Source of the DNA: Nannocystis bainbridge
Lineage (GTDB): Bacteria; Myxococcota_A; Polyangia; Nannocystales; Nannocystaceae
Direction: 5' to 3'
Length of the DNA: 64,000 bases
Assembly: GCF_028368995.1 (NCBI RefSeq)
Contig: NZ_JAQNDL010000001.1
Coordinates: 3,360,001-3,424,000 of the forward strand
Below, in pieces: positions 31,471-54,492 of the stretch. The stretch's first letter is position 1, and every line of letters starts with the position of its first letter. The notes below the pieces were generated by a model. The model was given only the letters and a program-made list of their open reading frames with translations, was not told where the DNA came from and searched no databases. The position numbers and the translations under genes were made by a program.

Positions 31471-32532
31471 TCAGCATATGAACTGCTTGAACACCGCGCG
31501 CCGCACCTGCGCGCGGTCCCACGCCTCTCGCAACGGCGGAGCGTTCGCCGCCCTGTCGCGCGTCGAGTGCGGCGCCTCGGCGAAATCGACATCGTCGAGG
31601 TCCGCCTCGCTCGCCACCACCCGCAGCGACAGCGCCGCCAGCGTCAGCCCGCCCGCATCGCGGACGAACCGCAGCACCGGCGCCGCCCGGCCCGCCCCGC
31701 AGCGACAGCCACGATCGCCGCGCCGACCGATCAGCGTCAGCCCGCCCCGCGTCACCGGATGGCGCAGCCGCGTGTAGTAGCCGCGGTCGACGTCCTCTTC
31801 CAGCCACGCGACCTCGCCCGCGATCCGGCAGCCCGGCCGCAGCGTCCCGCCGGTCCATGCCGACCCGAAGAACGACTGCGCATAGTCCGGGTGCGACAGC
31901 AGCAACATCTCCGAGCGCTCGCGCCGGTCTCCGCACGCTTCGCATTGGAACTCGCCTGCGACGTGGGTCCACGGCGACGACCCGTCCTCCGGTTCCGACG
32001 CGCATCGGCGGTCCCACGACTCCGTCATGAACGCGCAAAGTCTCGCGGCACGGGCCTCCGGCGGCTCCGCGGCGACCGCCTGCAGCGCCGCCACGAACGC
32101 CGCGTGATCGCCGGCCCACAGCATCGACTCTCCGTTCGCGAAGTCGACCTCGCCCGCGACCTCGCGATCGTACGCATCCCCCAACAAGATGCTCTCGAGC
32201 GTCGTCGACGGCCCCTCGCCGACCCGCAGCCGCAGGATCACCGCGAAGCGAGCCCCGCAGTCGCAGCCGAACCATTCGTCCTCGTCGACCAGCAGCTGCA
32301 CCACCGTCGGATCGACCGGCTCGCGCACCCGCCACCACGACCCCTCCCACGCTCGCGCCGTCCCGATCGCCTCGCTGCCGGGCTCGAGCGGCTGAGGATC
32401 GCCAGACCTGAACCACCGGTTGCACAGCCCGTAGAACTCCGGCCCGAAGAATTTCGTCTGTCCGTCGAGCCAGAAGCGGTCCCCGCAGCGCGGACAGCTC
32501 GCTTCGCCGGAGTAGATGTCGAACGCTCCCAT
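31471..32532 (-). CDS. Hypothetical protein with repeated CxxC / CxC motifs
   Basis: CPRCG..CDCG in the first half and CEACG..CRCG in the second half. Confidence 0.6.
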   Translation of the reverse strand: MGAFDIYSGEASCPRCGDRFWLDGQTKFFGPEFYGLCNRWFRSGDPQPLEPGSEAIGTARAWEGSWWRVREPVDPTVVQLLVDEDEWFGCDCGARFAVILRLRVGEGPSTTLESILLGDAYDREVAGEVDFANGESMLWAGDHAAFVAALQAVAAEPPEARAARLCAFMTESWDRRCASEPEDGSSPWTHVAGEFQCEACGDRRERSEMLLLSHPDYAQSFFGSAWTGGTLRPGCRIAGEVAWLEEDVDRGYYTRLRHPVTRGGLTLIGRRGDRGCRCGAGRAAPVLRFVRDAGGLTLAALSLRVVASEADLDDVDFAEAPHSTRDRAANAPPLREAWDRAQVRRAVFKQFIC

Positions 32533-32535
32533 CGC

Positions 32536-33918
32536 TCACGGATCCGAGAGCAGGAGCAGGTTGGGGAAGCCGCCGAAGAGCAGGTCGTCGACGCCGTCGC
32601 CGTTGACGTCGCCGACCGCGGTGTACGTCGGCGTGTCGACGCCCGCACGCGAGAGGGGCAACGGGGCGGGCGGCCACGGATCCTGGCCCAGCGCCGCCGT
32701 GAAGCCGGACACGCCCCCGAGCGCCACGTCGAGGCGGTCGTCGCCATCGAAGCGTCCGCGCACGATGAGCGAGTACTTGTCGCCGGTCAGCACCGCCTCC
32801 GGCTCGGCCAGCGTGCCATCGTCTTCGACGGTGAACGAGCGCAGCACCGCCTGCGCGTCCTCCTGAACCAGCACCACCAGCGCGGGCCGTTCGCCATCGG
32901 CCGGATCGACGACCAACACCGGCCCGATCTCCCCGCTCCCGGTCAGCAACTGGCCCGGAGCGAAGGTCCCGTCCCCGGCGCCGAACATCGTCTCGATCGC
33001 ATCCTCCTCGGTCTGCCAGCGCTTGATCACCAGGTCGAGGTTGCCGTCCTCGTCGAGGTCGAACAGGACCACGCCATCTCGCACGATCATCGGCGCGGGG
33101 AACAAGTTCGAGGTGAACCCACCGAGGCCGTCGTTCAGCGCGACCGCGATGCCTCCGTTGTCGACGGCGACCACATCGAGGTCGCCGTCGCCGTCGATGT
33201 CGCCGTGGTCGCAGCCGCGCGCCTGCACCGGCAAGCCGATCGTGCTCGCCGGACCGAAGGCGCCCATACCTGTCCCCAGAGACAGCTCAGGATCGGAGTT
33301 GACGCCGCAGGCGAACAGGTCGGCCACGCCGTCGCCGGTGAAGTCGGCGAAGCTCATCTCGTCGGGGAACCCGAGCGGCTTCCACGTGGGCCCGGGGGTG
33401 AAGCCGCCCTGCCCGTCGCCCAGCTGGACGATGTAGCTCATGGCCGACATCGTCGCCACCTCGGCGGACGCTCCCAGCGGCAGCGGCTCGCTCGGATTCG
33501 GCGCCGGAACGATCGGCAACGGGAGCGCCTCGAGGGTGAACATGTCGAGGTGACCGTCGCCGTCGAAGTCGACGAACGTGACGTTCGAGATGAAGTCGAG
33601 GAAATCGAGCTCGATCGCCGCGAAACACAGCTCACCGGGCGTCGCCACGCCGTCGCCACAGCCGGCCTCGACAGGATCGCCGGTGGTGCTGGTCGTGCCG
33701 GTGCTCGTCCCGTCGCTCGTCGTCGTGCCCGCGGTCGTCGTCGGCGCTGTGGTCGACGTCGGGCCTCCTGTCGAAGAAGCGCTGACGCCGTCGCTGGTGG
33801 ACGTCGCGGCGCTCGAAGTGTCGCTCGATGTCTCGCCCTCGGTCTCGCTCCCGACGGGGTCGGGCGTACAGGCGAGCCCCGCGGCGAGCGCGAGCGCGAA
33901 GCAATCACGAACGATCAT
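32536..33918 (-). CDS. FG-GAP/VCBS repeat lipoprotein whose start codon lies at the intron 3' junction
   Basis: Lipobox LAC, Thr-rich linker, several DFDGDGHLD / DIDGDGDLD repeats. Confidence 0.9.
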   Translation of the reverse strand: MIVRDCFALALAAGLACTPDPVGSETEGETSSDTSSAATSTSDGVSASSTGGPTSTTAPTTTAGTTTSDGTSTGTTSTTGDPVEAGCGDGVATPGELCFAAIELDFLDFISNVTFVDFDGDGHLDMFTLEALPLPIVPAPNPSEPLPLGASAEVATMSAMSYIVQLGDGQGGFTPGPTWKPLGFPDEMSFADFTGDGVADLFACGVNSDPELSLGTGMGAFGPASTIGLPVQARGCDHGDIDGDGDLDVVAVDNGGIAVALNDGLGGFTSNLFPAPMIVRDGVVLFDLDEDGNLDLVIKRWQTEEDAIETMFGAGDGTFAPGQLLTGSGEIGPVLVVDPADGERPALVVLVQEDAQAVLRSFTVEDDGTLAEPEAVLTGDKYSLIVRGRFDGDDRLDVALGGVSGFTAALGQDPWPPAPLPLSRAGVDTPTYTAVGDVNGDGVDDLLFGGFPNLLLLSDP

Positions 33919-35930
33919 TGGTAGATCCTACCCTTCCTCTGCTTGAGCCGGAGGAAGGGCAGGACCCCCGTTCAAACCGTGCATGCGGATTTCCCGCACA
34001 CGGCTTACCGGTGGTCTCTCGAGCCGCCGCATTACGCGGCCTCCGGGTACTGCACGGTCCCCCGTAGACGGTGGAGACCGTGGTTGTGGAAGAAGTCGCG
34101 CGTCCAGCTCTCGACCTCACCTGCGCGGAGGTGCCGGCCCTTGCGCCTCATCATGAAGCGACGAAGGCGAGACCACACGTAGGTGTCGATCCGGTTGAAT
34201 TTCACGGCGGCGTTCCCGGTGCGGAAGTAGTTACCCCAGCCACGCAGCACCGGGTTGATGTCACGGATGATCACCCGCACATCTTTGGCCCCGTTGCGGT
34301 TCGAGCCGGTCAGCTCCTTCACGCGCTGCCGTGCCCGCGTCATGCTACGCGTCGAGGGCCAGCGCTGGAGGAAGTACACCCTGCGATGTTCCTTCTCCCA
34401 GATCGGCCCGGACATGCGCTTGCGCAGGTGGCAGCCGAGGAAGTCGAAGCCTTGCCGTCCCCAGCTCAGCTCGACTCGCCTCGTCTTCTCGGGATGCAGT
34501 TCCAGCTTGAGACGCCGCAGGATCTCGCGGACCCTGACCTCGGCCTCCTCGCACGCCTTCCTGGTCCCGCACAGGATCACGAAGTCGTCGCAGTAGCGCA
34601 CGAGCTCGCCCAGATGGGCGTGCCGTCGCTGCCACAGCTTGTCGAGGACACCGAGGTAGATGTTCGACAGCAGCGGTGAGATCACGCCGCCCTGGGGTGT
34701 CCCCGAGAGCATCGCCGTCACCTGGCCGTCTTCCATCACGCCGGCTTCGAGCCATTGCCGCACCAGCTTGAGGACCCTTCGATCCGAGATCCGCATCTCG
34801 ACGAGCTTCATCAGTCGCTCGTGATCGATGCTGCCGAAGTAGTCGCGGATGTCAGCGTCGAGCACATGGTTCCCACCTCGAGCTCCCAGCACGCGCAGTC
34901 GCTCGAGCGCCTGCGTCGCGCTGCGCTTCGGCCGGAAGCCGTACGAGCACGGAAGGAAATCCGCCTCGAAGATCGGCTCCAGCACCAGCTTCGCCGCCAT
35001 CTGCACCACTCGGTCCCGGACTGTCGGGATCCCCAGCGGCCGCTTCTTCCCGTCCGCCTTCGGGATGTACCGCCGCATGACCGCGCTCGGTCGGTACGTC
35101 CCGCCCTTGAGTTCGTCGGCGATCTCTTCGAGGAAGCGATCGACGCCGAGCTCTTCCACCTCGGCCAGCGTCTGGGCATCGACGCCCGCTGACCCCCTGT
35201 TCTTCTTCACCCGCCTCCATGCTTCCTTCAGGACGTCACGCCTGAAGATGCGGTCGTACAGCGCATGGAAGCGTCGACCCGGTTGCCGCTTGGCTGCGGC
35301 CCACAGTCGGCGTCGAAGTTCTCGCACTTTGTCACGCGGCCTGCGCCGCGTGGGGTGGTTGGGACCTGTCCTGCAGGCCATGCCCTCGCGCTTACCTTCT
35401 TCTCCGACACGACCACCCCAGGGGTCCTTCCCTCCGACTGCGTTGTTCTGCGCCGCCATCGCCGGTACTACGACCCCCTCGGACTCCCGCTGCACAGCGC
35501 TCGACTTCGCCTTCGGCTTATACGAGTCGCATCGCCCCGACACGGGCCGTGCAGACGGGCCTCTCCTGTTCCGCATCGCTCCTTGAACGCGTGCTGCGCC
35601 CCATACCCCGGGAGGACCCATCGCGCTTTCTGCTCCGGATGACTGCGCGGTGGGCGTGGCCTTCGCCGTGAGATGAGCGGCTCGGCTCCCCCATTGTTCA
35701 TCTGTCGAGGCTGCAGGCTTCACTTGATGTTGCGGCCCGCGTTCTTGCTCCCTCCGCAGAGGCTCTTGACGCCCCGCTCGGGCCGCGAGAATCTCTCCTC
35801 GCGCCTGGGGCCTGCTACCGGGCGCTCCGGCGCCTACCCGGGCGGGACTTTCACCCGCTGGAACGGTGCAGCATGACGCGGCCGAGCCGCCCCCTCCGGG
35901 GCCGAGCTCGTCCGCGTCGTCAGGACGCAC
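33917..35930 (-). mobile_element. Group II intron (full length)
   Basis: 5' GTGCG at 35930; domain V AAGCCGTGTGCGGGAAATCCGCATGCACGGTTT (34006-33974); domain VI hairpin ending ..CTACCAAT at 33917; internal RT/maturase ORF. Confidence 0.93.
34032..35381 (-). CDS. ltrA: Group II intron reverse transcriptase/maturase without endonuclease domain
   Basis: RPLGIPTVRDRVVQ, SYGFRP, DADIRDYFGSI, GTPQGGVISPLLSNIYL, RYCDD, FDFLG, X domain INPVLRGWGNYF. The frame stays open upstream to the host ATG at 35933. Confidence 0.95.
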   Translation of the reverse strand: MACRTGPNHPTRRRPRDKVRELRRRLWAAAKRQPGRRFHALYDRIFRRDVLKEAWRRVKKNRGSAGVDAQTLAEVEELGVDRFLEEIADELKGGTYRPSAVMRRYIPKADGKKRPLGIPTVRDRVVQMAAKLVLEPIFEADFLPCSYGFRPKRSATQALERLRVLGARGGNHVLDADIRDYFGSIDHERLMKLVEMRISDRRVLKLVRQWLEAGVMEDGQVTAMLSGTPQGGVISPLLSNIYLGVLDKLWQRRHAHLGELVRYCDDFVILCGTRKACEEAEVRVREILRRLKLELHPEKTRRVELSWGRQGFDFLGCHLRKRMSGPIWEKEHRRVYFLQRWPSTRSMTRARQRVKELTGSNRNGAKDVRVIIRDINPVLRGWGNYFRTGNAAVKFNRIDTYVWSRLRRFMMRRKGRHLRAGEVESWTRDFFHNHGLHRLRGTVQYPEAA

Positions 35931-36076
35931 CATCGCCCCACGCTATCAGACGCCGGCCGCGCGGTCGAGGGGCGCAGCGTCGACGAGGCTCCATGCCCGA
36001 GTACGCCCCGGGAACCTCCTTGCAGCGCTACGCACCTCGCCGCCACCGCAGCAGCGATCCGTCACACTTCGCTATC

Positions 36077-36119
36077 TCAGGACCGCACGTCGAGCACGCG
36101 CCCCATCCCGGCCCAGCGC
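36077..36119. repeat. Left direct repeat: copy of the 3' end of the EF-Tu-like gene
   Basis: tcaggaccgcacgtcgagcacgcgccccatccc (33 bp) is identical to 40715-40747. It is followed by ggcccagcgc, matching 40757-40766 after a 9-bp deletion. Confidence 0.9.
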
Positions 36120-36223
36120 CTGATCTCGCATCATGATGTGCACTTCGGCGCATCTTCGAGCGCGACGGGCCTTGCGATGGTCGGAGGGGCGTGTGATAGC
36201 CTACCTCGACGAAGGGTGTTCTC

Positions 36224-36604
36224 ATGATTTGCACGGTCTTCGCCAACGGGCGCGGTGTGGTCCACAGACAGAGCGGAGGCGTCAGCGTGGTGTTCCCGGA
36301 CGTGTGCAAGACGCCGACGCCGGGCGGCCCGGTGCCCATCCCGTATCCCAACACGGGCAAGGCTTCGGACACTTCCAAAGGGCCGAAGAGCATCTCGGTC
36401 GACGGTTGCATGCCGATGGTCGAGGGCGCCCAATACAGCCGTTCGTACGGGGACGAGCCGGGGACTGCCGGGGGCGTGATCTCGGGCACCAACCGAGGCC
36501 CCTGCGAGTTCATGAACTTCTCCTTCAACGTCAAGTTCGCGGGCAAGAATGTTTGCCGTCTTGGCGATCCGCTGCTGCACAACAAGAGGAACATCGGCGG
36601 GTGA
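36224..36604 (+). CDS. DUF4150 (PAAR-like) T6SS tip protein
   Basis: VFANGR..FPDVCKTPTPGGPVPIPYPN..S.GDEPGTAGGVISG..SFNVKFAGKNVCRLGD. Confidence 0.92.
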   Translation: MICTVFANGRGVVHRQSGGVSVVFPDVCKTPTPGGPVPIPYPNTGKASDTSKGPKSISVDGCMPMVEGAQYSRSYGDEPGTAGGVISGTNRGPCEFMNFSFNVKFAGKNVCRLGDPLLHNKRNIGG

Positions 36605-36614
36605 GGTCGCACAG

Positions 36615-37760
36615 ATGGTGCAGATCGGTGAACCCGTGGGAGTGTCCGGAGCCTCCAGTCCGCCCCCGGACTGGGCGGCCGAGGTGATCGAGGTCAGCTT
36701 CAATTCCGGGATCGCGGCGGCGCGGGACAAGGCTGCCATCCGAGCTCCCCACTGGAGCATCGGCGAAGATTTGTCCGACCTCTGGAAGCTCACCCAATCG
36801 CTCCGATTGCCCGAGGCCCCCTACTCGAAGAAGGCCGCCGTGTATCTCGTGGAGGGCGCTGGCGGCCCGAGAGAGGTCGAGGTCAAGGTACGGGTCAGCA
36901 AGTGCGTCAACATCTCCGGCATGGGGAAGTTGGTCGGCTCGCTCGGGCTCATCGTCATCGAAGGCGAATGCCCGCTCGCGGTCGGGCAACACACGGTCAA
37001 GGCGCAGATCCGGGAACTTCCCGAAGCCATCGCCCACCTCCGCGGCCTGCTCCAGTGGGGAATGGAAGCGGACAAGTTCGGCTGCTGGGCGCTCAATGCC
37101 AGCCTGGTCGAGTTGTTCTTCATCCTGGCCCGGCCGATCGCGGCTTACACACCTGGGGTATGGGTCGAAGCGCTGCGACTCGTCTGTCTCCGCGGGCCGG
37201 TGCTCGGTTTCAAACCGGACGAAGAAGCCAGGGTGGTCGCCAACATCACCCGCTACTGCCACTCGGACCACGAGATGAAATACGACACGCTCGGCGGCGA
37301 CGCGTCTTTCGATGTCGCCGGCGACGGCGGCGCGTTCAACCTCTCGAATTATCTGGCCAGGGCGACCTCGACCCTCAACTGTTACGATCAGGCCGGCGCA
37401 GTCCAGGCGCTCGCAGGTGCGGTCGGTGTCGTCGTCTCCTGGATCTACCTCGCTCCGTTCGGATGCATTCACACGACGGACCTCGTGGGCGTCGGGCGGT
37501 GCAACAACCCCTTCTTCGCCTTTATCGGCAGCGAGCCGGTCGTCGCCCCCGACGATCCGCAGAGGACAGCTTTCGGCAACCACGCCTTCGTCGAGCACGG
37601 CAAGATCCATGACGCCTGCGCCGGGCCGCACATCGGGACCGAGTCGCGCCCCCAGTACGTCGCAACTACGATCGACGCGGTCGCCACACGCGAGCAGGGG
37701 TACGATCCAGGCACCGCCGCAGACATGGAAATTTGCCCGGGTGTGACCAGCATCGTATGA
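36615..37760 (+). CDS. Putative T6SS effector with transglutaminase/papain-like Cys-His-Asp motifs
   Basis: Follows DUF4150; LNCYDQA, FGNHAFV, IHDACAGP. Confidence 0.6.
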   Translation: MVQIGEPVGVSGASSPPPDWAAEVIEVSFNSGIAAARDKAAIRAPHWSIGEDLSDLWKLTQSLRLPEAPYSKKAAVYLVEGAGGPREVEVKVRVSKCVNISGMGKLVGSLGLIVIEGECPLAVGQHTVKAQIRELPEAIAHLRGLLQWGMEADKFGCWALNASLVELFFILARPIAAYTPGVWVEALRLVCLRGPVLGFKPDEEARVVANITRYCHSDHEMKYDTLGGDASFDVAGDGGAFNLSNYLARATSTLNCYDQAGAVQALAGAVGVVVSWIYLAPFGCIHTTDLVGVGRCNNPFFAFIGSEPVVAPDDPQRTAFGNHAFVEHGKIHDACAGPHIGTESRPQYVATTIDAVATREQGYDPGTAADMEICPGVTSIV

Positions 37761-38668
37761 CGCTCCGCCTCACAGCGCTGGTGCTGCTGGCCTTCGCGCC
37801 TGGATGTGGCGCCCCTCATCGACCCGATCCACAGCAAGACAGTCGAGGAGCTCGCTCGATCATGACGAACCCCAAGGCCGAGACACTGAAGAGCAAGCTC
37901 GAGCTCGACAAGGTCGAGCTCACCGAACCCGCGCGAGGCGTCGAACTCGCGTGGACGACCGCGCTGGTGCGAGGTTTCCTGCCGGGCGCGAAGTGGGAGC
38001 TGCTGGGAGATACCACGCTCCCCGTCGAGCCCGGTGAAGCGATGCACAAGTGGATCTGGGGCGACGGGGCCGCCCGCCTCACCGTCGCGGTGTTCGTGTC
38101 GAGCGACGGTCCACTCGTCGCGCGCCGTCGACTCGTCACGCTCGCCACGGAGAACATGCGCCCGGACGTACCCTTCATCCGTGGTCCGGCAGATCTGGGC
38201 GATGTCTCGACGATCTTCGCCGTCCCACCCGCCTTCGCCCATCTGATCTGGGCTTACACGAACGTCTGCGTCGCCATCAAGACTCAGGACGCACCGGGCA
38301 TCGATGTGACGAACATCGCCGCAGCGATGCAAGAACACCTCGCCCGTCACGTCGTGCCACGAGTCAAGGGGGCGACGCCGCAGATCGAGCACGCGGAGCC
38401 GTCACTCAAGCAGGTGCCGGTCGGTACACCACTGACGATTCGGCTCCGGATGCGAAGCGAGGATGCTCCCCGCGAGCTGCAGGTCGCCATCAAGGAGCGT
38501 AACTCGACGCTCCGGATCGCCGGCGACCTGGGCCTCGTCACGACCTTGAGCGTCGACACGCCGGGGCCGCGGAAGCTGACCATGATGGTCGCCGACAAGA
38601 GTACCTTGCTGTCGACCTGGGCCAGCGTGATCTTCGAGGTCACGCCCCCGGCGCCGGTTAACGACTGA
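37757..38668 (+). CDS. Lipoprotein, putative immunity protein
   Basis: ATGA overlap with the putative effector; signal peptide ending APGC. Confidence 0.55.
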   Translation: MTLRLTALVLLAFAPGCGAPHRPDPQQDSRGARSIMTNPKAETLKSKLELDKVELTEPARGVELAWTTALVRGFLPGAKWELLGDTTLPVEPGEAMHKWIWGDGAARLTVAVFVSSDGPLVARRRLVTLATENMRPDVPFIRGPADLGDVSTIFAVPPAFAHLIWAYTNVCVAIKTQDAPGIDVTNIAAAMQEHLARHVVPRVKGATPQIEHAEPSLKQVPVGTPLTIRLRMRSEDAPRELQVAIKERNSTLRIAGDLGLVTTLSVDTPGPRKLTMMVADKSTLLSTWASVIFEVTPPAPVND

Positions 38669-39704
38669 CGACGACCGCCGCCCGGGGCGCTCCCTCCGAG
38701 GCGCACCAGACGAGGCTCGAACCGGGGCTATCACCCCGCATGAGCTCCACCGCGGCGAGACCCAACAACACGGGGCCCGACGCCGCGCCCAGGTCGCCGA
38801 AGCAGTCGGCGGGGTGCCTCAGGTGCAGGCCGTCGCGGAACGCCGAGCTCGAGCGAATCGCGGCCACGCCCCACTCCTTCGCGCCGAAGCTCTCGCCGTT
38901 GAGGCTGCAGAATACGCTGCTGATCGAGGCATCGGGCGCTCCCGCGACCGCCGCACGGACAGCATCGGCGAGCCCGTCGCCGAGATGCGGCTCCTCGCTG
39001 CGGCGATGGCCCCGCTCCTCGCCGAGGCCAGGCGCAGCGACATGAGCGATGCCGACCGACTCCGGCGTCCTCCGCTGCGCCGAGAGCAGCAGAAACCCTG
39101 CCCCCTCGCCCGGCACGAAGCCATCCGTGACCCCGCAGGCATGCACCCGGCCCGCCCGATCCAGCAGTCCCAGCAGCTCCGGATCGACGTGACTGTCCAC
39201 CCCGCCGACGAGCACGTAGGGCTGTCCCTGCTCGTGCAGGAGCCGCGAGGCGTGCTCCAACACGGCGATGCCCCCTGCACGGCCCTGGAAGGCCGTCGAG
39301 CTGTGCTCGCGGCTGAATGTCACGTTCGTCTGGACCCGGAGCTGCATCAAGAATTCCGCCCCGATCGCCGCTTCCTCTGCCGCGTAGGGCTCGGGACCGA
39401 CGAGCAGGAGAGGAATGGTGTCGACTCGAGCGACCGGTGACACGGCCTCCCGGAGCGCGCGCGTGGCCAGCCGCAGCATGCGCTGGTGTCGCCTCGACAG
39501 TCGCCTGTTCCGCGCCAGCTCCGGAGCGAGCGGCGGAAGGTGCTCGTCCTCCAGGAAGGCGACGATCATCGGCTCCCCCTTGGAGTTCCAGAACGAGCTC
39601 TCGCGCTGGCGGCTGATGCCCGCCCGCACGGCCGCCGCTGTCGCCGCGGCCTTGAGTCCCACGGCCGTGATCACACCCACTTGGTGGACCCAAGCGCCTG
39701 TCAT
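38658..39704 (-). CDS. Thiolase/ketoacyl-synthase-like T6SS accessory protein (PRK06147-like)
   Basis: AAAVRAGISR, VLVGGVDS, FVPGEGAGF, LNGESFGAKEW, HPADCFGDLGAASG; coupled to DUF2169. Confidence 0.85.
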   Translation of the reverse strand: MTGAWVHQVGVITAVGLKAAATAAAVRAGISRQRESSFWNSKGEPMIVAFLEDEHLPPLAPELARNRRLSRRHQRMLRLATRALREAVSPVARVDTIPLLLVGPEPYAAEEAAIGAEFLMQLRVQTNVTFSREHSSTAFQGRAGGIAVLEHASRLLHEQGQPYVLVGGVDSHVDPELLGLLDRAGRVHACGVTDGFVPGEGAGFLLLSAQRRTPESVGIAHVAAPGLGEERGHRRSEEPHLGDGLADAVRAAVAGAPDASISSVFCSLNGESFGAKEWGVAAIRSSSAFRDGLHLRHPADCFGDLGAASGPVLLGLAAVELMRGDSPGSSLVWCASEGAPRAAVVVSR

Positions 39705-40714
39705 GCCAGCCTCAACTCTTCCAGCCACAGCGTGGCTCGCTCGATCTGCAGCACCCGCTTGTCGCACGATGTCGCGGCTCGCCAGACCATGCACAATCGC
39801 CGCGCGTCCGGCTCGATCAGCACCGTCTCGAGCTCCGGCCGCAACGTTCTCCTATCACCAGCGATCCTCACTTCGATGAAGAAGCGACAGATCGGCAGGA
39901 GACAACGCAGCGGTCCCTCCACAGCGGCGTTCTCGAGCCGCACCGCCTCGCCGCCTCGCAGATATCCGGGGGCACGGAGGACCTCGGGCGCCACGTTGAA
40001 GAACCGCGGGTCGAAGTCATGCGGGAGATAAGGGGCGCGGTGACGATGCCATGCCTCGTCGTAGGTGCCTGCGCACTCCCTCCGCGGCGACCAGGCGGGG
40101 GCCACGGGTGCGAAACACGCCGGGATGGCGGCATCGCCGGCTCCCAATACCGGCGACCGAGGATCCTCCAAATTGGGCAGCAGCAACCCCTTCATGGCCC
40201 GCCCGCGAGCCCCGCGGAATCCTCGTCCGACTGGGTTTCGCGGCTCGTCACGCGGCGGGCCCTGCTCGGGCACGTAGCAGCCCCCGAACGCACGCTCGTA
40301 AACCAACGGCATGGCGACGAAGGGCACCGGCGTGGTGGCCCGCGACAGCGAGGCTGCCCCGGTCCAGAAGCGGTCGCCGACCACGCGGACGGCTCGGCGA
40401 ACGTCCGCGACCGCGAATTCGACCATCAGTTCACTCACCGCCTCGCCGCGAGGCGCGTGGGCTTGGCCGACGAGGAGCACGTCCGTGGATGGCTTGGTGG
40501 GGTGGCGATCTGCGGGATAGCGAATGCTCGACTGTCCGGGCTCGCCCCAATACACGTCACTGGCGTGCAGCGGTACCTGTTCCTCGGCGACGCGCAAAGG
40601 GCTGCCGAGCTCGAAGCTCGCCTTCACCGCCACATAGACCGTATCGACGCCGCGAACATCCGGAAGGACGTCGAGCCCGGCGCTGAACGGCGTGTTGTTG
40701 GTGACCTGCAGCAT
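39701..40714 (-). CDS. DUF2169 T6SS adaptor
   Basis: N.TPF..VAVKASF..KPSTDVLLVG..V.GDRFW..MPLVYERAFGG..NPVG.GF..LPNLED..GTYD..FFNVAP..TVLIEPD. Confidence 0.92.
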   Translation of the reverse strand: MLQVTNNTPFSAGLDVLPDVRGVDTVYVAVKASFELGSPLRVAEEQVPLHASDVYWGEPGQSSIRYPADRHPTKPSTDVLLVGQAHAPRGEAVSELMVEFAVADVRRAVRVVGDRFWTGAASLSRATTPVPFVAMPLVYERAFGGCYVPEQGPPRDEPRNPVGRGFRGARGRAMKGLLLPNLEDPRSPVLGAGDAAIPACFAPVAPAWSPRRECAGTYDEAWHRHRAPYLPHDFDPRFFNVAPEVLRAPGYLRGGEAVRLENAAVEGPLRCLLPICRFFIEVRIAGDRRTLRPELETVLIEPDARRLCMVWRAATSCDKRVLQIERATLWLEELRLA

Positions 40715-47471: not shown

Positions 47472-49991
47472 TCACCGCAGCAGCTCGAGCAGCTCCTCGC
47501 GGCCCAGGCCCGACACATCGCCCTCGTCGACCGTCGCCTGCGCCAGCGCCCGCTTGCGCGCGTGCAGCTCGAGGATCTTCTCCTCCACCGTGTCCTCCGC
47601 GATCAGCCGGTGCAGGAACACCGGCCGCGACTGCCCGATCCGGTGGGCCCGCGCCCCGGCCTGATCCTCGATCGACGGGTTCCACCACGGGTCCAGCAGA
47701 TACACATAGTCCGCAGCCGTCAGGTTCAGCCCCGTCCCGCCCGCCTTGAGCGAGATCAGCATCACCGGCGGCCCGTCCTCCGCCTGGAACCGCGCCACCA
47801 CCCCTGCGCGATCCTCCGTCGCCCCGTCGAGCCGCACGTGCTCGAGCTCCGCCGCCGTCAGCGCGTCCTCGACCAGATCCAGCAGGCTGGTCCACTGCGA
47901 GAACACCAGCGCCCGGTGGCCCGCCGCCGTCACCTCGGTCAGCTGCGCCAGCAGCAGCTCCACCTTGCTCGAGCGCGTCGCCTCCTGCCCCGGTACCAGC
48001 GCCGTGTGGCACGCCGCCTGGCGCAGCCGCAGCAGCAGCTCGAGCGCCTCGAGCATCCCCCCGCCCGACTGCAGCTTCGGCAGCTCGAGCTCGGCCGCCA
48101 CGCGCAGCCCGTCGTAGATCCGGCGCTCCTCCGCGTCGAGCGGGCAGCGCAGCACGATCTCCGTCAACGGCGGCAGCTCTGGCGCCACCTCTTGCTTACG
48201 CCGGCGCAGCATGAACGGCCGCAGCTTCGCCTGCAGCTCCGCCGTCCGGGCCGCCCGGCCCTGCTCGACCGCCTTGCCGTAGCCTGCCACGAACTCGCGC
48301 AGCTGCCCCAGCAGCCCCGGGTTCAGGAAATGCGACAGGCTCCACAGCTCCGTCAGGCGGTTCTGCACCGGCGTCCCGCTGAGCGCCACCCGCCAGCCCG
48401 CGCGCAGCCCGAACGCCGCGCTCGCGGTCGCCGTCGTCGGCTCCTTGATCGCGTGCGCCTCGTCGAGCACCACCGTGTCCCAAGTCTCTCGGGACAGCTT
48501 CTCACGGTCGAGCCGCAGCACCGCGTAGCTCGTGATCGTCACGTCGGCCGTCGGCTCGAGGTTGCGCTTCGGCCCGTGATACAGCGCCGCGCGCAGCCCC
48601 GGGCGGAACCTGCGGCACTCTGCCAGCCAGTTGTGCAGCGTCGAAGTCGGCGCCACCACCAGCGTCCGCCCGCGCACCGAAGTCAGCGTCTGCAGCGTCT
48701 TCCCCAGCCCCATGTCGTCGGCAAGCAGCGCCCCGATCCCCGCATCGCGCAGCACGCTCAACCAATCGACCCCGCGCCGCTGATAATCGCGCAGCTGCGC
48801 CGTCAGGTCCGCCGGCAGCGTCGCCGCCGGCAACGTCGCGAACATCTCCTCGCGCGACAGCGCCGCCAGCCCTGCCAGCTCGGGCGGCGGCGGCACCTGC
48901 AGCGCCTCGCACAGCCCTGCCGCCGCCGTCCGGGCCCAGCGCGGCCGCTTCCCGTCGGCCCGGCGCGCCGCCACGAATTGCTCGAGCATCGGCCCGTAGC
49001 GCTCCAGCCAGTCGCGCGGCAGCCACACCAGCCCGCCGTCGTCGGCCTGCAGCGCATATTGCCCCGAGCGCCACGCCTGCACCACCCGCGCCGCGTCGAC
49101 CTGCGTCTCCCCGCTTGAAGAAGCCCCGCTCGGCGCCTTGAACGTCACCTCCGGCTCGCCCGCCTCCGCGCCCGCCGCCGGCTCCGTCCATTGCGGCTCG
49201 AGCGTCCGCTTCTCCGGCTCGCGCGCCTCTGGTGATTCCGCCGGCGAACCTGCCTCCGGCGATTGTGAAGTCTCCTCGCTCACCGCGATCCGCTCCACGA
49301 ATCGCAGCACTTGCCCCACCAACGCCAGCCGCCCGCCGACGAACGTGCGCCCCTCGATCGCCGCCGCCGTCCGGACCCGCAGCGGCGCCGCCTCGATCGC
49401 CACCGGCGCCCCGTCGAGCGTCACATCGAATGCCGGCACCAGCCGCGCCACCACGAACTCCGCGATGTCCGGGTAGATCATCAGCTCCTTCGCCCCTGCC
49501 GGCATCGCCGCCAGCAGCGGATCGTCCGCCTCGACCGCCCCCACCTGCACCGCCTCGCCGCCCGCGCTCACCGCCACCACCCGCAGCTGCAGCTTGTCGC
49601 CCGCGCTCTGCAGCCGGTACCCCAGCTGCAGCGCCGCCGCCACCTGCGGCCCGATCTGCTCGAGCAGCCCGCCAGCAGTGTGCAGCACCAGCGCCGCCGC
49701 CACCACATGCTCACAGACGGCCGGCCCCGCCCCGCAGTCGCAGCGCCACCCGTCCCACGCCCACCGCACCTCCGCCCGCACCCCGCTGCCCGCCAGCCGC
49801 GCGATCGCAAACACCCACCCTGAGGCGTCGCACGCCTGCACCCGCGCCGCCCCCAGCCGCGCCAGCTTCAATCCCCGGTGCCACGCCGCCGGCGCCGCCG
49901 CCCGATGAACAGGTTCGAGGACCTCGGTAAACACGCGTTCAAGGCTGTACCACGCCCGGTCTCGGAGGTCAGCGCGCGTTTTCGCGCACAC
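47472..49991 (-). CDS. SNF2-family helicase with SWIM zinc finger
   Basis: CDC..CEH SWIM; LADDMGLGKT, LDEAH, SGTPVQN, ISLKAGGTGLNL, DPWWNP, RAHRIGQ. Start uncertain. Confidence 0.93.
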   Translation of the reverse strand: MCAKTRADLRDRAWYSLERVFTEVLEPVHRAAAPAAWHRGLKLARLGAARVQACDASGWVFAIARLAGSGVRAEVRWAWDGWRCDCGAGPAVCEHVVAAALVLHTAGGLLEQIGPQVAAALQLGYRLQSAGDKLQLRVVAVSAGGEAVQVGAVEADDPLLAAMPAGAKELMIYPDIAEFVVARLVPAFDVTLDGAPVAIEAAPLRVRTAAAIEGRTFVGGRLALVGQVLRFVERIAVSEETSQSPEAGSPAESPEAREPEKRTLEPQWTEPAAGAEAGEPEVTFKAPSGASSSGETQVDAARVVQAWRSGQYALQADDGGLVWLPRDWLERYGPMLEQFVAARRADGKRPRWARTAAAGLCEALQVPPPPELAGLAALSREEMFATLPAATLPADLTAQLRDYQRRGVDWLSVLRDAGIGALLADDMGLGKTLQTLTSVRGRTLVVAPTSTLHNWLAECRRFRPGLRAALYHGPKRNLEPTADVTITSYAVLRLDREKLSRETWDTVVLDEAHAIKEPTTATASAAFGLRAGWRVALSGTPVQNRLTELWSLSHFLNPGLLGQLREFVAGYGKAVEQGRAARTAELQAKLRPFMLRRRKQEVAPELPPLTEIVLRCPLDAEERRIYDGLRVAAELELPKLQSGGGMLEALELLLRLRQAACHTALVPGQEATRSSKVELLLAQLTEVTAAGHRALVFSQWTSLLDLVEDALTAAELEHVRLDGATEDRAGVVARFQAEDGPPVMLISLKAGGTGLNLTAADYVYLLDPWWNPSIEDQAGARAHRIGQSRPVFLHRLIAEDTVEEKILELHARKRALAQATVDEGDVSGLGREELLELLR

Positions 49992-50081
49992 CTTCGCGCC
50001 GACCGCGGTCCGCTCTTCGAAATGAAGCGTGGGAAACTTCGCCGAATCAGCCGATCATCGCGCTCGAGAAGCCGAGGCATC

Positions 50082-50310
50082 ATGACCTGGAGAGACATCC
50101 ATCTTTACGGCGCCGGCGCCATCGAACGTGTCTGCGGGCTCTACGAAATCGGCAACCTGCGAGTCCCGGGCGCCAAGTTCAAGATCAAGGTCCTCGAGCG
50201 TGCGCAAGGTGACTTCGTTGCCCTGCTCAACGTCAGCCTGAAAGCGCCAGACGGAAGCCCGGACGGAATGGCCGGACTCGGACGAACCGAGCACGAGGCG
50301 CGTTCGTCGA
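50082..50310 (+). pseudogene. Possibly truncated small hypothetical gene at the island edge
   Basis: MTWRDIHLY..KFKIKVLER.. reads like a protein for about 75 aa, then runs into the antisense of the KAP gene. Confidence 0.3.
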
Positions 50311-50377
50311 CCCCTGAGGGCGACGCTCATGCACAACTGCCGCACACAGCGGACCGGGATACCGTCGCATGGCGCTC

Positions 50378-52141
50378 TCATCCGTATAGTTGCTTAAGCC
50401 GAACGATGAGCATTTTTTTCTGCAGACTTGGCCCCGGCGCCTGTTGCTCGAGTCTCGCAGTCATGCGCTTGACCCAGTCTCCGGAACCGCCGATCCGGAG
50501 CAGCTCCACGACCTGAATCTGATCATGGTAGGTAAGCGAGAGCAGTATTTTGACGAAATCATCAGTGTCGACTTCTTGCAAAGCGCCGAGCGGCACGGCC
50601 GCCTCACGGCGCCAGCAGTCCTGCAAGTCGACTCCAAGCGCAGCAGCGAAGGCTTGTCCTCCTTGGCGCAAGGCTTTGAGAAGCTTCACTGACTCCAACT
50701 GAATTATTCTCCGCTCGCTCGACCTGGAGCTTTCGGTAGCGTACTTCACAAGCTCCTGAAATTCAGCCATTTCAACGGCCGCATACACTACTCCTGCGTA
50801 TGATTTCGGATACACAAAGCAGGCGTCGCAAGTCTCCGCGTCACGATTAATTGATGCAATTGCACATTTTGCTGCATCGATAATGCTCGCTATGCTCCGC
50901 ACGGAACACACCACCCCCTCATCTTGCGCCCACATATGAGTAGCAGCGACGTGTAAGATTTGACCAGCAGTGTGAAGATTCTTATCAATCAGAGATTTCC
51001 ATGTATTTTCCAGAAGATCATTGAACTCCGAGTCTGAAAACTTATCAAAGTTGATCAAGCGCAGCCAGTCCGGCGGTTGAGCATCCTCCACCACGCGTTT
51101 GCATTCGGAGGCGAGTTCGGCTACTTCGATCTCGCCACGCGCAAAGAAGCCACGCCACCAATTCAGCGAGAGAACCTGTGGCGATAGTGAGAGCGCCGAG
51201 TATCGGCGGTAAATAGTATCATCCAAGCTATCGCCGCTCTGTTTTCCCGAAACAATATTCGCCACGCGCGGCTCAATCTCATCGGGCTTCAATGCGCCGG
51301 AGTAGACCCCAAATGCCAGGGGCAGTGTGGAATCAAGCAACCTCAAAGCCAATGTCTGCTCGTCCTGCAGATCGCTGGGAATCACCGTGAATATGCGGCA
51401 AAAGTCGCGAATGGCAAAGCGGAGGACACGCAGGCTGGTGCATTGGGAATGCTCAAAAAGCTGCAGCGCGCGTCCTCGATGCCTCTTGAGGACTGTCGCG
51501 CACATGTCACTTTCTTCACTGAGCATGCAGTCCAATGCGCCCGCCGCATCGGGGGTCACCTTGAGGGTCATGCCGATGGTTTTCTCCTTGGTCCGCCGGT
51601 AGGATCCGTCCTTTCCCTCTATCTCATTCTCTGCTGACAGCAGGATTACCTTCTTGCCATCATGTTCGACCAACTGGTTGATGAGGCCCCACAGTTCGTC
51701 TCCGGCAACGGCGCAGCGTTCAATGTCGTCGAAGACTAGGATGTCTTTGTCGGTTGAGGGATTCTTTTTTACCTCATCCATGACCCCGGGGAGCCCCGCG
51801 CTGACTTGCAAGTCCCCCTTGTTGTCGCCATTCAAATCGATGGTTGTCGAGATTTTCACAAGCCCCTTGATCAGCCGCCCCGCAATGACAGCTCCTTTCG
51901 ATGCAAGAAACGGATGGCGTGCAGCAAAAATTCGTTCGGCCACATCATTGGCGGATTTGGCTCCGTATAGGCTTATGTAGAGATATTTGTTGAGTTTATC
52001 GGAGGACGAGTGGCGTTGAATCAGCCAAGTCTTGCCCGTGCCCCACTCACCCGTTATCATCAATGCGTAGCGGGGCGGCGTGGTGTAGCATGCATAGTGG
52101 GTGAGATATGACAGGATGTGCTGGTTCGGATTCTCGGACAT
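50378..52141 (-). CDS. KAP family P-loop NTPase in a low-GC insertion
   Basis: ITGEWGTGKT, YISLYG, LVFDDIER, EKTIG; visibly much more AT-rich than its flanks. Confidence 0.85.
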   Translation of the reverse strand: MSENPNQHILSYLTHYACYTTPPRYALMITGEWGTGKTWLIQRHSSSDKLNKYLYISLYGAKSANDVAERIFAARHPFLASKGAVIAGRLIKGLVKISTTIDLNGDNKGDLQVSAGLPGVMDEVKKNPSTDKDILVFDDIERCAVAGDELWGLINQLVEHDGKKVILLSAENEIEGKDGSYRRTKEKTIGMTLKVTPDAAGALDCMLSEESDMCATVLKRHRGRALQLFEHSQCTSLRVLRFAIRDFCRIFTVIPSDLQDEQTLALRLLDSTLPLAFGVYSGALKPDEIEPRVANIVSGKQSGDSLDDTIYRRYSALSLSPQVLSLNWWRGFFARGEIEVAELASECKRVVEDAQPPDWLRLINFDKFSDSEFNDLLENTWKSLIDKNLHTAGQILHVAATHMWAQDEGVVCSVRSIASIIDAAKCAIASINRDAETCDACFVYPKSYAGVVYAAVEMAEFQELVKYATESSRSSERRIIQLESVKLLKALRQGGQAFAAALGVDLQDCWRREAAVPLGALQEVDTDDFVKILLSLTYHDQIQVVELLRIGGSGDWVKRMTARLEQQAPGPSLQKKMLIVRLKQLYG

Positions 52142-52817
52142 GAATAGGATTATCGCCCACTGCACGAGCAAATGTCAACTCGTCCATTCGAAGGGACATG
52201 CCCGGGGCAAGGGAGTCGGGGGCAACAGGCCGGCGTTGAGGGCTGACCCAAACCTGCCCTACTGCGGAATAAACTTCGAGCAGGCTGTCCCGATGAGGTT
52301 GGTAGCGACGTCGAACCCGGGCCCGTAGTCGGACTCACTCCAGCCGATCGAGTACATATACGGGAACAGCGCGCGAAATTGACAAATGTGGTCGTAGTCC
52401 TTGCACTCGCCGCCGTACTTGCTGGCGATACTGAACACGACCACGGCCGCGCCATCGCCATGCTTGGCTTCGATCACCGCTTGCGCCACTCGGCGGGGGT
52501 ACCTTCCGAGTCTTCGTCGGCGGTGACGAAGGCAAGGGCCACGACCATGACGTACTACATCCACCTCGATAAGCTGCGTAAGGCTCGCTAGGCGGTGGAC
52601 ATGCTGGCGGGAACCGCCCCGCCCCCGACGCTGGCACCCGTGGTGCCGATGCGGCCGACCCCGCCGGTCCGTGGCAACCGCCTGGCACTGGCTGGTAAGT
52701 AGCCCGGGTTCTGTCGTATACGTGGAATTGAGCCGAATTCACAGTCGGCAATTCGCTAAGCAGGACACCCGGCCCGGCTCGCACTCGCGGCCCACTCGAC
52801 TCGAAGCCGAGAACCCG

Positions 52818-53336
52818 TCACCCCCCGAGCCGCTGCGTCACTTCCGCCTCGAGCTCCGCGATCTTCACCTCGCCCGCGAACACCTTCACGATCTGCCCGT
52901 CCTTATCGACCACGTACAGCGTCGGCATCTTCGGCGGCGACCACGACTTCGCCAGCGCCTGTCCTTCATCGAAAATCATCGGGAACGACACTGGCACATC
53001 GCGGAGGAACGCCTGCGCGTCCTCGCGTTGCTCGTCCATGCTCACTCCGACCATCTCCAGCCCGTTCGCCTGGTGGCGCTTGTAGAGCGCCTCGAGCTCC
53101 GGGAACTCTCGGCGGCATGGTTCGCACCACGACGCCCAGAAGTCGACCAGCACCAGCTTCCCGCGCATCGTTGCCAGGTCCACCGTCGTCCCCGCCCCGG
53201 CCAACGACGGCCCGGCCAGCGCGGGTGCCGGCCTCTCCGCCGTCGCCGGCGCACCGCCGTCGGGCGCCTTCGTCGCGGGTTGCGGCTCGCAGGCCGACAG
53301 GAGGAACATGGCGAAGAGGACAGGTCGTGAAAACAT
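52818..53336 (-). CDS. TlpA-family thiol:disulfide oxidoreductase lipoprotein
   Basis: Lipobox LSAC; GKLVLVDFWASWCEPC; MPTLYVVD. Confidence 0.93.
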   Translation of the reverse strand: MFSRPVLFAMFLLSACEPQPATKAPDGGAPATAERPAPALAGPSLAGAGTTVDLATMRGKLVLVDFWASWCEPCRREFPELEALYKRHQANGLEMVGVSMDEQREDAQAFLRDVPVSFPMIFDEGQALAKSWSPPKMPTLYVVDKDGQIVKVFAGEVKIAELEAEVTQRLGG

Positions 53337-53366
53337 GCGTGTGTGCTCCGAAGAAAGCCGGCCGTA

Positions 53367-54455: not shown

Positions 54456-54492
54456 TGGCGGCGAATCATCACGCGCACAGCGCGCGTCACCC

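Follow-up and report, generated by a model that had tools for sequence, protein, structure and literature searches.

A cross-phylum clade of group II introns located directly after the start codons of putatively leaderless genes

The locus described here raises the question of how a 2-kb insertion can lie inside a bacterial gene, directly after the first codon, and how such a position is found. It is part of a 64,000-nucleotide (nt) stretch of the Nannocystis bainbridge genome (contig NZ_JAQNDL010000001.1, positions 3,360,001 to 3,424,000), called the window below, which carries on its minus strand a group II intron of 2,015 nt (35930-33916, GUGCG...CCAAUG), which directly follows the ATG of a lipoprotein gene and directly precedes codon 2 of that gene. 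In bacteria, group II introns are believed to persist by keeping out of genes. The known exceptions are aimed at terminators, at attC sites or, in one IIB1 lineage, at start or stop codons, according to the accessible part of PMC12584367. In this paper we compare the window intron with its copies in the genus and with a wider set of relatives, and we consider it probable that it belongs to a cross-phylum clade of endonuclease-less group II introns specialised for landing directly after the codon with which leaderless genes start, with a -10 box 6-8 nt upstream of that codon.

On the minus strand the order is TGATAGCGT-GGGGCG-ATG (35933-35931), then GTGCG (35930...) and the body of the intron up to GGGTAGGATCTACCAATG (33918-33916), followed by ATCGTT. 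The Rfam model group-II-D1D4-4 (RF02003) matches positions 35725-35860 of the minus strand with 80.6 bits (gathering score 49), and the model Intron_gpII for domains V and VI (D5/D6; RF00029) matches 33909-34008 of the same strand with 42 bits (gathering score 40); a second domain I (D1) model, RF02005, reaches 47.6 bits at 35605-35712, which is under its gathering score of 49. The D5-D6 region folds with a z-score of -7.3, D5 has a loop of 5 nt (GAAAU), the conserved D1 core begins ~70 nt past the 5' end of the intron, and the ribozyme without its reverse transcriptase (RT) gene measures 665 nt. An open reading frame (ORF) of 633 amino acids (aa) at 34032..35933 of the minus strand contains the Pfam domains RVT_1 (aa 290-503, E 9.6e-34) and GIIM (aa 532-600, E 1.4e-16), and since Pfam finds nothing in it after GIIM, the protein has no endonuclease domain. 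The 5' boundary matches the GUGYG of group II introns, and the 3' end, as placed by the covariation of exon-binding site 3 (EBS3) described below, would be UG and not AY. This deviation is common to the whole clade and is no argument against identification as a group II intron. The downstream ORF, of 460 aa (32536..33918, minus strand), carries FG-GAP_3 (Pfam, E 6.1e-19) and opens at the intron-terminal ATG; its predicted N-terminus, MIVRDCFALALAAGLAC, looks like a signal peptide followed by a lipobox-like Cys.

Three copies of the intron, 99-100% identical, are present in the same genome (G000; 11.05 Mb in 5 contigs), and three further genomes of the genus add 14 copies at 93% and 4 at about 70% identity. 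In all four genomes together, 21 of 21 full copies have ATG or GTG directly ahead of GTGCG and an ORF after the intron. They terminate in GGATCTACCA(A/G)TG, and a signal peptide often starts at that NTG. The copies of genome G007 have GTG as their 5' NTG in three cases and ATG in two; at the 3' end, every copy of a given intron variant has the same NTG. Because the 5' triplet varies within a genome and the 3' triplet does not vary within a variant, the former belongs to the host and the latter is borne by the intron.

Empty alleles are found for all three sites of the home genome. The FG-GAP orthologue in G003 is intron-less and reads TAGCGT-GGAACC-ATG-CCT-GTT-CGC, with a single ATG; the orthologue in G005 is also intron-less with a single ATG, and both proteins start MPVRR(S/C)(F/L)ALALAAALAC. 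The second site (L002) is empty in 5 of 5 orthologues, all of which read TGATAGCAT-N7-ATG-AGC-CTC, and the third (L003) is empty in G001, G005 and G007. In these orthologous empty alleles the hexamer stands at the same distance from the ATG. The empty alleles are orthologues from other species and so display the predicted architecture, a single ATG followed by codon 2, and not the literal string GCGATGATCGTT that had been expected at the window site, where G003 instead has GGAACC ATG CCT GTT CGC.

One gene start appears to have been entered more than once. The copies L003 (G000:C2:1697142-1699172) and L047 (G010:C1:6404811-6406802) occupy the start of one orthologous lipoprotein gene and are variants only 69% identical; the EBS1 and EBS3 of each match its own local -4 and +1 bases, which argues for independent invasions. 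From its sequence the intron appears to be active, and its several near-identical copies, together with the entry of two variants at one orthologous site, are indirect signs of self-splicing and retrohoming. Three of the five 93% copies in G007 (L035, L036, L037) have a 1-nt deletion ahead of the RT start that breaks the long frame, and L037 also has a broken RT of 189 codons; these deletions reflect either decay or indel errors of the assembly.

The wider clade was sampled with the 449-aa RT in a search of one genome per species, which returned 593 relatives, and the best 80 were kept. The 5' end of the intron was placed in 64 loci, in 46 of them by the first 11 bases of the intron alone and in 18 by a pattern that also demanded N-T-G/T ahead of it. 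The 3' end was placed in 64 of 79 loci by a pattern demanding a final TG, and one of these loci, L116, looks spurious. Resolved clade loci with enough flank, together with the 21 copies from the genus, give 82 sites (L131 is the same place as L045). The last three bases of the 5' flank are ATG in 61 sites, GTG in 19, TTG in one and ATT in one. A TAnnnT box precedes them in 80 of the 82, at a spacing of 6 nt (55 sites), 7 nt (22) or 8 nt (3) from the NTG, and the test for this box is independent of the patterns by which the intron ends were placed. The first five bases of the intron are GTGCG in 64 sites, TTGCG in 12, TCGCG in 4, and GTGTG and TTCGT in one each. When the three downstream frames are compared at 73 sites, that of the terminal NUG holds an ORF of at least 100 codons in 64, and the other two do so in 16 and 30. 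None of the full copies at the 82 resolved sites stands in an intergenic or leadered context, and internally deleted or fragmentary copies without an RT (L043, at G010:C1:7331423-7332334, and L011, L030, L031 and L013) are also found at sites of the TAnnnT-N6-NTG type. Full copies might act in trans on such RT-less derivatives, to splice or to mobilise them.

Carriers of the intron include Myxococcota, Planctomycetota, Acidobacteriota, Beta- and Gammaproteobacteria, Spirochaetia, Gemmatimonadales, Chloroflexia and many Actinomycetota, among them a Mycobacterium, and across these many phyla the host genes are lipoproteins and assorted genes. The terminus CUACCA(A/G)UG is found throughout the clade and AGGA is confined to the subclade of the window intron; the nearest outgroup RTs (about 50% identity, from Firmicutes, Paenibacillus and others, L142-L151) are without the CUACCAAUG end. 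In an actinobacterial subclade (L098, L100, L101, L105, L106, L109, L113-L115, L118, L121-L125, L127, L136) UUGCG or UCGCG, and once UUCGU, replaces GUGCG. The introns of that UUGCG/UCGCG subclade lie directly after ATG, GTG or TTG and have the 3' end CCCCUGACUACCAAUG, without an SD-like (Shine-Dalgarno-like) motif. One member of the clade, L110, has 1,386 nt between the intron 5' end and the RT start, compared with about 500-590 nt in the others, and may carry an extra insertion, perhaps a nested element, in domains I-III.

The means by which these sites are recognised can be read from covariation between intron and target. Domain I of 75 introns was aligned, and every target position was scanned against every intron column for complementary covariation; the four top pairs of the scan are -3 with nt 258 (0.99), -4 with nt 259 (0.93), hexamer position 5 with nt 231 (0.93) and +1 with nt 328 (0.91). 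EBS1 pairs with xNUG at positions -1 to -4 in 75/75, 75/75, 74/75 and 71/75 introns respectively, with several types of pair at -3 and -4, and positions -5 and -6 pair with the intron no better than shuffles do. The variants of EBS1 and their sites are CAUC-GAUG (the window intron), CAUG-C(A/G)UG, CACU-GGUG, CAUA-UAUG and CAUU-(A/G)AUG. EBS3 pairs with +1 in 41 of 47 cases, 38 of them Watson-Crick and with all four pair types represented, where shuffles average 20.2 and 0/2000 reach 41; against +2 and +3 the count is 15/46 each. Further upstream, the invariant intron base A230 faces hexamer position 6 (T) in 73/73 sites, nt 231 pairs with hexamer position 5 in 68/73 and nt 232 with hexamer position 4 in 43/73, and for each of the latter two counts 0/2000 shuffles reach as many. 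This EBS2-like pairing is anchored to the hexamer and not to the splice site, which fits the variable spacing of 6-8 nt. No pairing that would explain the invariant T1 and A2 of the hexamer was found in the covariation scan.

These comparisons show that the ribozyme reads the module of -10 box and start codon directly, through an EBS2-like loop, a 4-nt EBS1 and EBS3, and the predicted target takes the form [TA-n-(n-n-T)] - 5-7 nt - [x-N-U-G] | [N]. As EBS1 ends on the G of NUG and EBS3 takes the next base, the insertion falls after the start codon and the element is GUGCG...CCAAUG with a UG end. Three other candidates were discarded: the base 5' of EBS1 as the delta position, as it shows no complementarity to +1; a second hairpin loop containing CAUCC as an EBS, as it does not covary with position -4; and CCACGC between the hairpins as an EBS, as it is identical in variants with different targets. 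In G001, two copies with EBS3 C in place of G (among L028, L040 and L041) lie at sites with C at +1 and one with EBS3 G lies at a site with G at +1; these mismatches reflect either drift after insertion or exchange between copies.

A preliminary description of this DNA had placed the intron at a start codon and had argued that one of its boundaries must depart from the canonical rule by 1 nt unless splicing is dispensable. The start-codon position is borne out by the flanks of the copies collected in this genome and its relatives (21 of 21 have ATG or GTG at the junction and an ORF downstream), by ATG or GTG at 80 of the 82 clade sites and by the empty alleles. The non-canonical boundary is borne out by the covariation of EBS3 with the base after NUG, which selects the first of the two removals offered there, GTGCG..CCAATG. 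The same description took the intron to target translation starts as such; the introns are indeed always at start codons, but what is selected by base pairing is the combined module of -10 box and start codon. Its suggestion of a leaderless context agrees with the box found 6-8 nt upstream at 80 of 82 sites, from which we infer leaderless transcription here, a TAnnnT 6-8 nt ahead of ATG or GTG being the likely signature of leaderless genes.

Other properties of the box are consistent with a promoter. The invariant hexamer positions T1, A2 and T6 are those important in -10 elements, 60% of sites resemble extended -10 elements in that a G stands two bases ahead of the hexamer, and the 6-8 nt between box and NUG leave no room for an SD sequence. 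The sites are true N-termini, with signal peptides or lipoboxes starting at the NUG and long ORFs at 64/73. In the home genome TAnnnT stands 6-8 nt ahead of ATG at 99 of 21,853 GATGA sites (0.45%), yet at 3 of 3 intron copies, and 79 of the 99 boxed GATGA sites, unoccupied, open ORFs of at least 100 codons; scaled over the other -4/+1 bases and over GTG starts, these counts suggest that a large share of the genes of this genome may be leaderless. In Deinococcus deserti, leaderless genes have a -10 motif directly ahead of the start codon and no detectable -35, and TAnnnT is the mycobacterial -10, as stated in the accessible part of PMC4007540.

If the host promoter starts transcription at the start codon, the primary transcript would open with the AUG and continue directly into the intron, and the frames on either side of the RT then become of interest. 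From the host ATG to the RT start the host frame has no stop, compared with 3 and 6 stops in the other two frames (mononucleotide shuffles, P about 0.013). The 70% variants have many indels and keep the frame, their RT starting at nt 562 versus 550. Among 62 family loci the frame of the host NUG is stop-free and in frame with the RT in 26, all of the nearer subclade, with resulting ORFs of 617-680 codons, and frames +1 and +2 are open in none. In the fused members the RT starts at nt 502, 532, 544, 550, 559, 562, 571, 583, 586 or 589, all of which are 1 mod 3. The first ORF of the actinobacterial subclade is about 125 codons long, and its stop overlaps a start codon from which the RT frame is entered (18 loci). 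Among 49 evaluable loci 22 are fused, 18 are linked by a stop/start and 4 stop at most 30 nt from the RT start, giving 44/49 linked in total, and 5 are unlinked. Variable sites fall 18/17/13 on the three codon positions in domains I-III and 42/39/114 in the RT; the lack of a third-position excess in domains I-III points to selection for an open frame and not for a peptide.

A corresponding arrangement is found on the 3' side. In the window intron the TAATG at the RT stop opens 34 codons that run through D5-D6, and the TAG that closes them lies 9 nt ahead of, and in frame with, the terminal ATG. In 57 of 64 introns a translated frame comes to its end at the terminal NUG, within a span from 25 nt before it to 4 nt past its first base, the frame being that of the RT ORF itself in 10 and of a restart ORF in 47. 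Where the RT stop is distant (54 introns), an open +2 frame occurs in 49 and an ATG of that frame at the stop in 45; the corresponding counts for the +1 frame are 9 and 0, the background rate of ATG at such a position being 8%. The position of the restart differs by subclade (+2, +5, -1 or +8 from the RT stop). An in-frame stop ahead of the terminal NUG was considered as a universal feature and given up, as termination occurs in any frame between 4 nt past and 25 nt before. The general 3' feature is a short ORF, predicted to be coupled, that ends just ahead of the terminal NUG. The window intron also has AGGA (33929-33926) 7 nt ahead of its terminal ATG.

The preliminary description had the intron taking over the host ATG and rebuilding a ribosome-binding site (RBS) and ATG for the host gene. 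The first of these ideas gains support from the stop-free fusion of the host frame to the RT in 26 of 62 loci, from the ten lengths of D1-D3 that are 1 mod 3 and from the closure of the other frames in all 62, which together suggest translation from the host ATG. The second holds in part, in that a terminal (A/G)UG is present clade-wide and AGGA is present here; AGGA is not general, however, and is paired in D6.

With the insertion point, the three pairings, the intron-borne NUG and the conserved open frames established by comparison of sequences, the following course of events may be proposed. Ribosomes would load on the 5'-terminal AUG of the transcript and read in frame through domains I-III into the RT, which would feed RT synthesis and keep the RNA translated. 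At the RT stop (TAATG) they would restart on the 34-codon ORF of D5-D6, which ends 9 nt ahead of the terminal AUG, and would restart again on the host ORF at that AUG, aided in the window subclade by AGGA. Production of the host protein would then be possible both from spliced and from unspliced RNA, and precise excision (NUG|...NUG|) would restore the original leaderless mRNA; if the mRNA is leaderless, the whole 5' exon would be the host ATG. New copies would arise by reverse splicing into the sense strand, the lagging-strand template, as for endonuclease-less introns.

The orientation of the copies is compatible with insertion at forks. With the origin taken at dnaA (12.49 Mb in G001, 8.50 Mb in G007:C2, 5.04 Mb in G010:C1 and 4.35 Mb in G000:C1) and equal replichores, 20 of 20 evaluable copies (7+7+5+1) are co-oriented with the replication fork, and the GC skew of the plus strand of the window is negative in 8 of 8 bins. 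Co-orientation fits the reports for endonuclease-less introns such as RmInt1, as given in the accessible part of PMC12584367. A bias in the orientation of host genes also contributes to the pattern.

Several observations count against this account. The ends of some introns were located by patterns that already demand NTG/NTT on the 5' side (18 loci) or TG on the 3' side, and the loci share descent, so that the counts overstate their independence. Of the EBS3 pairs 6/47 are mismatched, including 3/7 in G001. The UG end departs from the AY of group II introns, and one would expect a 5' exon of 3 nt, with 3 base pairs to hold it, to be readily lost once the first step of splicing is over; we know of no precedent for either such an exon or a UG 3' end. 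No -35 signal is present at 78 aligned sites, where the best TTGACA match is 2.41 compared with 2.14-2.24 at control offsets, and a scan of 33800-36300 with an E. coli-type sigma-70 consensus gave 0 promoter-like sites. The final T of the hexamer pairs with an invariant intron A, and part of TAnnnT therefore reflects the specificity of the intron and is not proof of a promoter. Assembled contigs of sequencing runs gave neither a spliced joint nor an informative transcript start: one contig of run X1 (1,921 nt), possibly a DNA run, covers 34012-35932 and begins and ends at repeat boundaries, and metatranscriptome contigs of 90-99% likeness cover parts of the intron, from which no conclusion is drawn. 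As for the frames, L081, L086, L087 and three G007 copies are one base out of frame, the 184-codon extension is without constraint at the protein level, and an internal RT start, GGTAAGCGCGAGGGC-ATG-GCC, is conserved clade-wide, so that the RT may be made solely from it. On the 3' side 7/64 introns have no relay, and AGGA was rejected as a general RBS, as it is missing from actinobacterial and betaproteobacterial members and base-paired in D6. The fork argument assumes an oriC at dnaA and equal replichores, and the predicted terminus is no more than about 0.6 Mb away from 4/20 copies.

Other explanations of the site have to be set against these data. If the splice sites were shifted by one base, an intron G+GUGCG...CCAAU would lie between the U and the G of the start codon and the terminal 'AUG' would be half intron and half exon; the DNA and the ligated exons would be the same, the canonical AU 3' end would be kept and the UUGCG/UCGCG subclade (16 loci) would regain a 5' G. 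We regard this as improbable, given that EBS3 covaries with the base after NUG (41/47) and not with the invariant G, nor with +2 or +3, and that an invariant C of EBS1 stands opposite the G of NUG in 75/75 sites, which puts the junction between the pairings of intron-binding sites 1 and 3 (IBS1 and IBS3) after the G; members ending in ...CCAGUG (the G001 copies, L084, L090 and L107) would moreover end in GU, which is also non-canonical. The restriction to leaderless starts might also be a matter of survival and not of choice, with insertion at any xNUG|N and persistence of only those copies that are harmless and expressed, since EBS1 and EBS3 together give a specificity of just about 5 base pairs and insertions inside genes would be purged. 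The covariation of hexamer positions 5 and 4 with nt 231 and 232 (0/2000 shuffles in both cases), the shared site context of internally deleted and degenerate copies, and the finding that full copies at the 82 resolved sites are never intergenic or in a leadered context leave this idea with hardly any likelihood. TAnnnT-N6-8-NUG could also be a mere homing motif, the hexamer no working promoter and the genes not leaderless, in which case the position at start codons would derive secondarily from the homing site of an ancestor. Pairing of the ribozyme with hexamer positions 4-6 is in line with this, and neither a -35 signal nor a sigma-70 consensus match is seen; yet T1 and A2 are invariant with no pairing found for them, the G two bases ahead of the hexamer recurs in 60% of sites, the spacing varies over 6-8 nt and is too short for an SD, signal peptides, lipoboxes and long ORFs (64/73) mark the sites as true N-termini, orthologous empty alleles keep the hexamer at the same distance, 79 of the 99 boxed sites of the home genome lead into ORFs of at least 100 codons, and leaderless genes are documented to be built in the same way (PMC4007540, accessible part). 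We give this explanation a low probability, and prefer a target that is both promoter and start codon.

The use of the open frames can be doubted on other grounds. They may go unused, the RT being made solely from the internal ATG and the host protein depending wholly on splicing, in which case the frames would be a side effect of a GC-rich, structurally constrained RNA or would reflect mere avoidance of harmful premature termination. The clade-wide conservation of the internal start with its GAGGG motif, the absence of a codon-position signal in the extension (18/17/13), the pairing of AGGA in D6, the stops in the first frame in part of the clade and the ease with which long ORFs arise in GC-rich DNA all speak for this. 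It is harder to reconcile with frame 0 being open in 27/62 while +1 and +2 are open in 0/62, with ten D1-D3 lengths that are all 1 mod 3, or with shuffles at P about 0.01 per intron. Where frame 0 does stop, an overlapping stop/start enters the RT frame (18 loci), and on the 3' side +2 is open in 49/54 versus 9/54 for +1, with a restart ATG in 45/54 versus 0/54 against a background of 8%; the subclades, moreover, differ in their sequence solution (restart at +2, +5, -1 or +8 from the stop). Unused frames seem to us unlikely, though deserving of serious consideration, and decoding from the host AUG onward the preferred reading.

The coordinates of the elements discussed above are collected in Table 1. 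The GC content of the window is 0.675 at 32001-40000, where the intron is included, and 0.669 at 48001-56000, compared with 0.72-0.73 elsewhere.

Table 1. Position of the intron, its recognition elements and its reading frames in the window, in 5' to 3' order of the minus strand as far as they do not overlap
Feature	Position	Strand	Remarks
Extended -10-like element TGATAGCGT	35940..35948	minus	hexamer TAGCGT = 35945-35940, 6 nt ahead of host ATG
IBS2-like target	C35942, G35941, T35940	minus	3' part of hexamer
IBS1 = GATG	35931..35934	minus	base ahead of start codon + host ATG (35933-35931)
Stop-free stretch, 184 codons	35382..35933	minus	host ATG through domains I-III to RT start
Domains I-III	about 35930-35382	minus	followed by domain IV, which carries the RT gene
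EBS2-like G-A-U-G, intron nt 229-232	35699..35702	minus	5' strand of domain I internal loop
EBS1 = CAUC, intron nt 256-259	35672..35675	minus	hairpin loop CUCAUCUCA
EBS3 = U, intron nt 328	35603	minus	after GGGGUA; partner is first base of codon 2, A33915 (IBS3)
Intron-encoded protein, 449 aa	34032..35381	minus	internal ATG 35381-35379 to TAA 34034-34032; RT + maturase (X)
Predicted 'relay' ORF, 34 codons + stop	33928..34032	minus	from RT-stop overlap TAATG through D5 and D6 to TAG 33930-33928
D5	about 34006-33974	minus	Rfam, fold
D6	about 33969-33920	minus	Rfam, fold
Intron 3' terminus AGGAUCUACCAAUG	33916..33929	minus	SD-like AGGA 33929-33926, 7-nt spacer, AUG 33918-33916
Predicted branch-point A	33922	minus	first unpaired base past D6 helix, seventh from intron 3' end; from fold
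3' exon, FG-GAP repeat lipoprotein gene from codon 2	32536..33915	minus	Pfam FG-GAP_3

The targeting rule of these introns is readable: three short RNA-DNA pairings stand for '-10 box + start codon + next base', and dozens of natural covariations accompany it. The clade would link a retroelement to leaderless translation, which is common in Actinomycetota, in Deinococcus and, to judge by the count of boxed sites, in the myxobacterial genome studied here. Translational coupling, it is suggested, renders an insertion at the first codon harmless. If this is true, occupied sites would flag leaderless genes in unannotated genomes and serve as a natural marker that spans phyla, and the short modular specificity could be of use for retargetable insertions at gene starts. 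The clade also raises the questions of whether splicing is possible when the 5' exon is 3 nt long and the 3' end is UG, and whether a ribozyme that is translated through can yet fold. Only tentatively, and with some doubt, do we propose that the clade is a previously undescribed cross-phylum class of retroelements built around leaderless expression, in which -10 box and start codon are read together, on a strand perhaps made single-stranded by the replication fork or by RNA polymerase itself, the element lands after the first codon, decoding runs end to end from the 5'-terminal AUG of the host, a 2-kb insertion is neutral even without splicing and occupied sites mark leaderless genes.

In the literature as far as it was accessible, no group II intron is tied to leaderless genes, to -10 boxes or to such insertion after a start codon, and Michel et al. 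2007, a source known through PMC12584367, PMC4748821 and PMC4465626, may describe more lineages. The IIB1 lineage at start and stop codons (Michel et al. 2007, as given in the accessible part of PMC12584367) is monophyletic, has a 5'-subterminal subdomain Ia of 300-700 nt, and its targeting is described as unexplained. It is described there from proteobacterial housekeeping genes, an example being EcKTE56.groEL, a close relative of EcI5 with a length of 3,228 nt. Like the window intron, these introns are bound to translation signals and leave host decoding intact, the groEL introns by swapping UAA for UAG (PMC12584367, accessible part) and the window intron by supplying a new AUG. Both insert at such codons, the IIB1 lineage within or next to initiation or termination codons and the window clade directly after the initiation codon. 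Unlike them, the window intron has no subdomain Ia of 300-700 nt (about 70 nt lie ahead of its D1 core) and is 2,015 nt in total, and its clade is hosted, in many phyla, by lipoproteins and assorted genes in which a -10 box precedes the start codon by 6-8 nt. The RTs of CL1 carry D/En domains, and the window RT is a protein of 449 aa with no domain after GIIM. In lacking subdomain Ia, the window intron would be a different kind of element from the IIB1 start/stop-codon lineage.

Group IIC introns resemble the window intron in having no endonuclease domain and an IBS1 of 3-4 nt, and in reading an expression signal instead of a long unique sequence. They recognise a DNA hairpin and have no EBS2 (PMC12584367 and PMC3753933, accessible parts), whereas the window intron has an EBS2-like pairing to the -10 box, an EBS3 and a larger, IIB-like domain I, and its target is a promoter with a start codon and not a terminator. 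In a PDB sequence search the best match among solved RTs is to those of IIC (E 3e-54), with IIC, CL and ML RTs scoring nearly equally, and tblastn against plasmids gives one relative above 60% (Embleya), the rest being at 33-40%, including Sinorhizobium at 34%; neither search fixes the class. The class D intron RmInt1 of Sinorhizobium meliloti also encodes an RT+X protein without D/En domains and is guided to replication forks (PMC12584367, accessible part). It homes into an insertion sequence by long EBS/IBS pairings and not into gene starts. The plasmid-borne group II RT of Sinorhizobium meliloti that is 34% identical in protein sequence to the window RT is assumed, and not shown, to be that of RmInt1. 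The RT ORF of the yeast mitochondrial introns aI1 and aI2 continues the reading frame of the upstream exon and crosses the ribozyme domains before domain IV. The window intron shares this continuity of the RT frame with the upstream exon; it differs in that its upstream exon would be just the start codon, its host is a bacterium, its mRNA is probably leaderless and an internal start is conserved as well.

Class E/F introns, according to the accessible part of PMC3753933, have no endonuclease domain, an IIB-like ribozyme of 450-700 nt and a 5-nt D5 loop. The window intron has the same features, with no endonuclease domain, a ribozyme of 665 nt and the D5 loop GAAAU. Class E/F introns also have an alpha' motif at the tip of a stem-loop in DId3, for which a possible candidate in the window intron is the hairpin that follows the EBS1 hairpin and has a long terminal loop with UCCGG. 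In the members of class E/F that have been studied, the EBS1 and EBS2 pairings are at least 5 base pairs and lie beside the splice site, and the 3' end is AC (PMC3753933, accessible part), whereas in the window intron EBS1 forms 4 base pairs, the EBS2-like pairing forms 2-4 and lies 5-7 nt from IBS1, and the 3' end is UG. By its features, and not by RT phylogeny, the window intron may be likened to an endonuclease-less, IIB-like intron of the class E/F kind.

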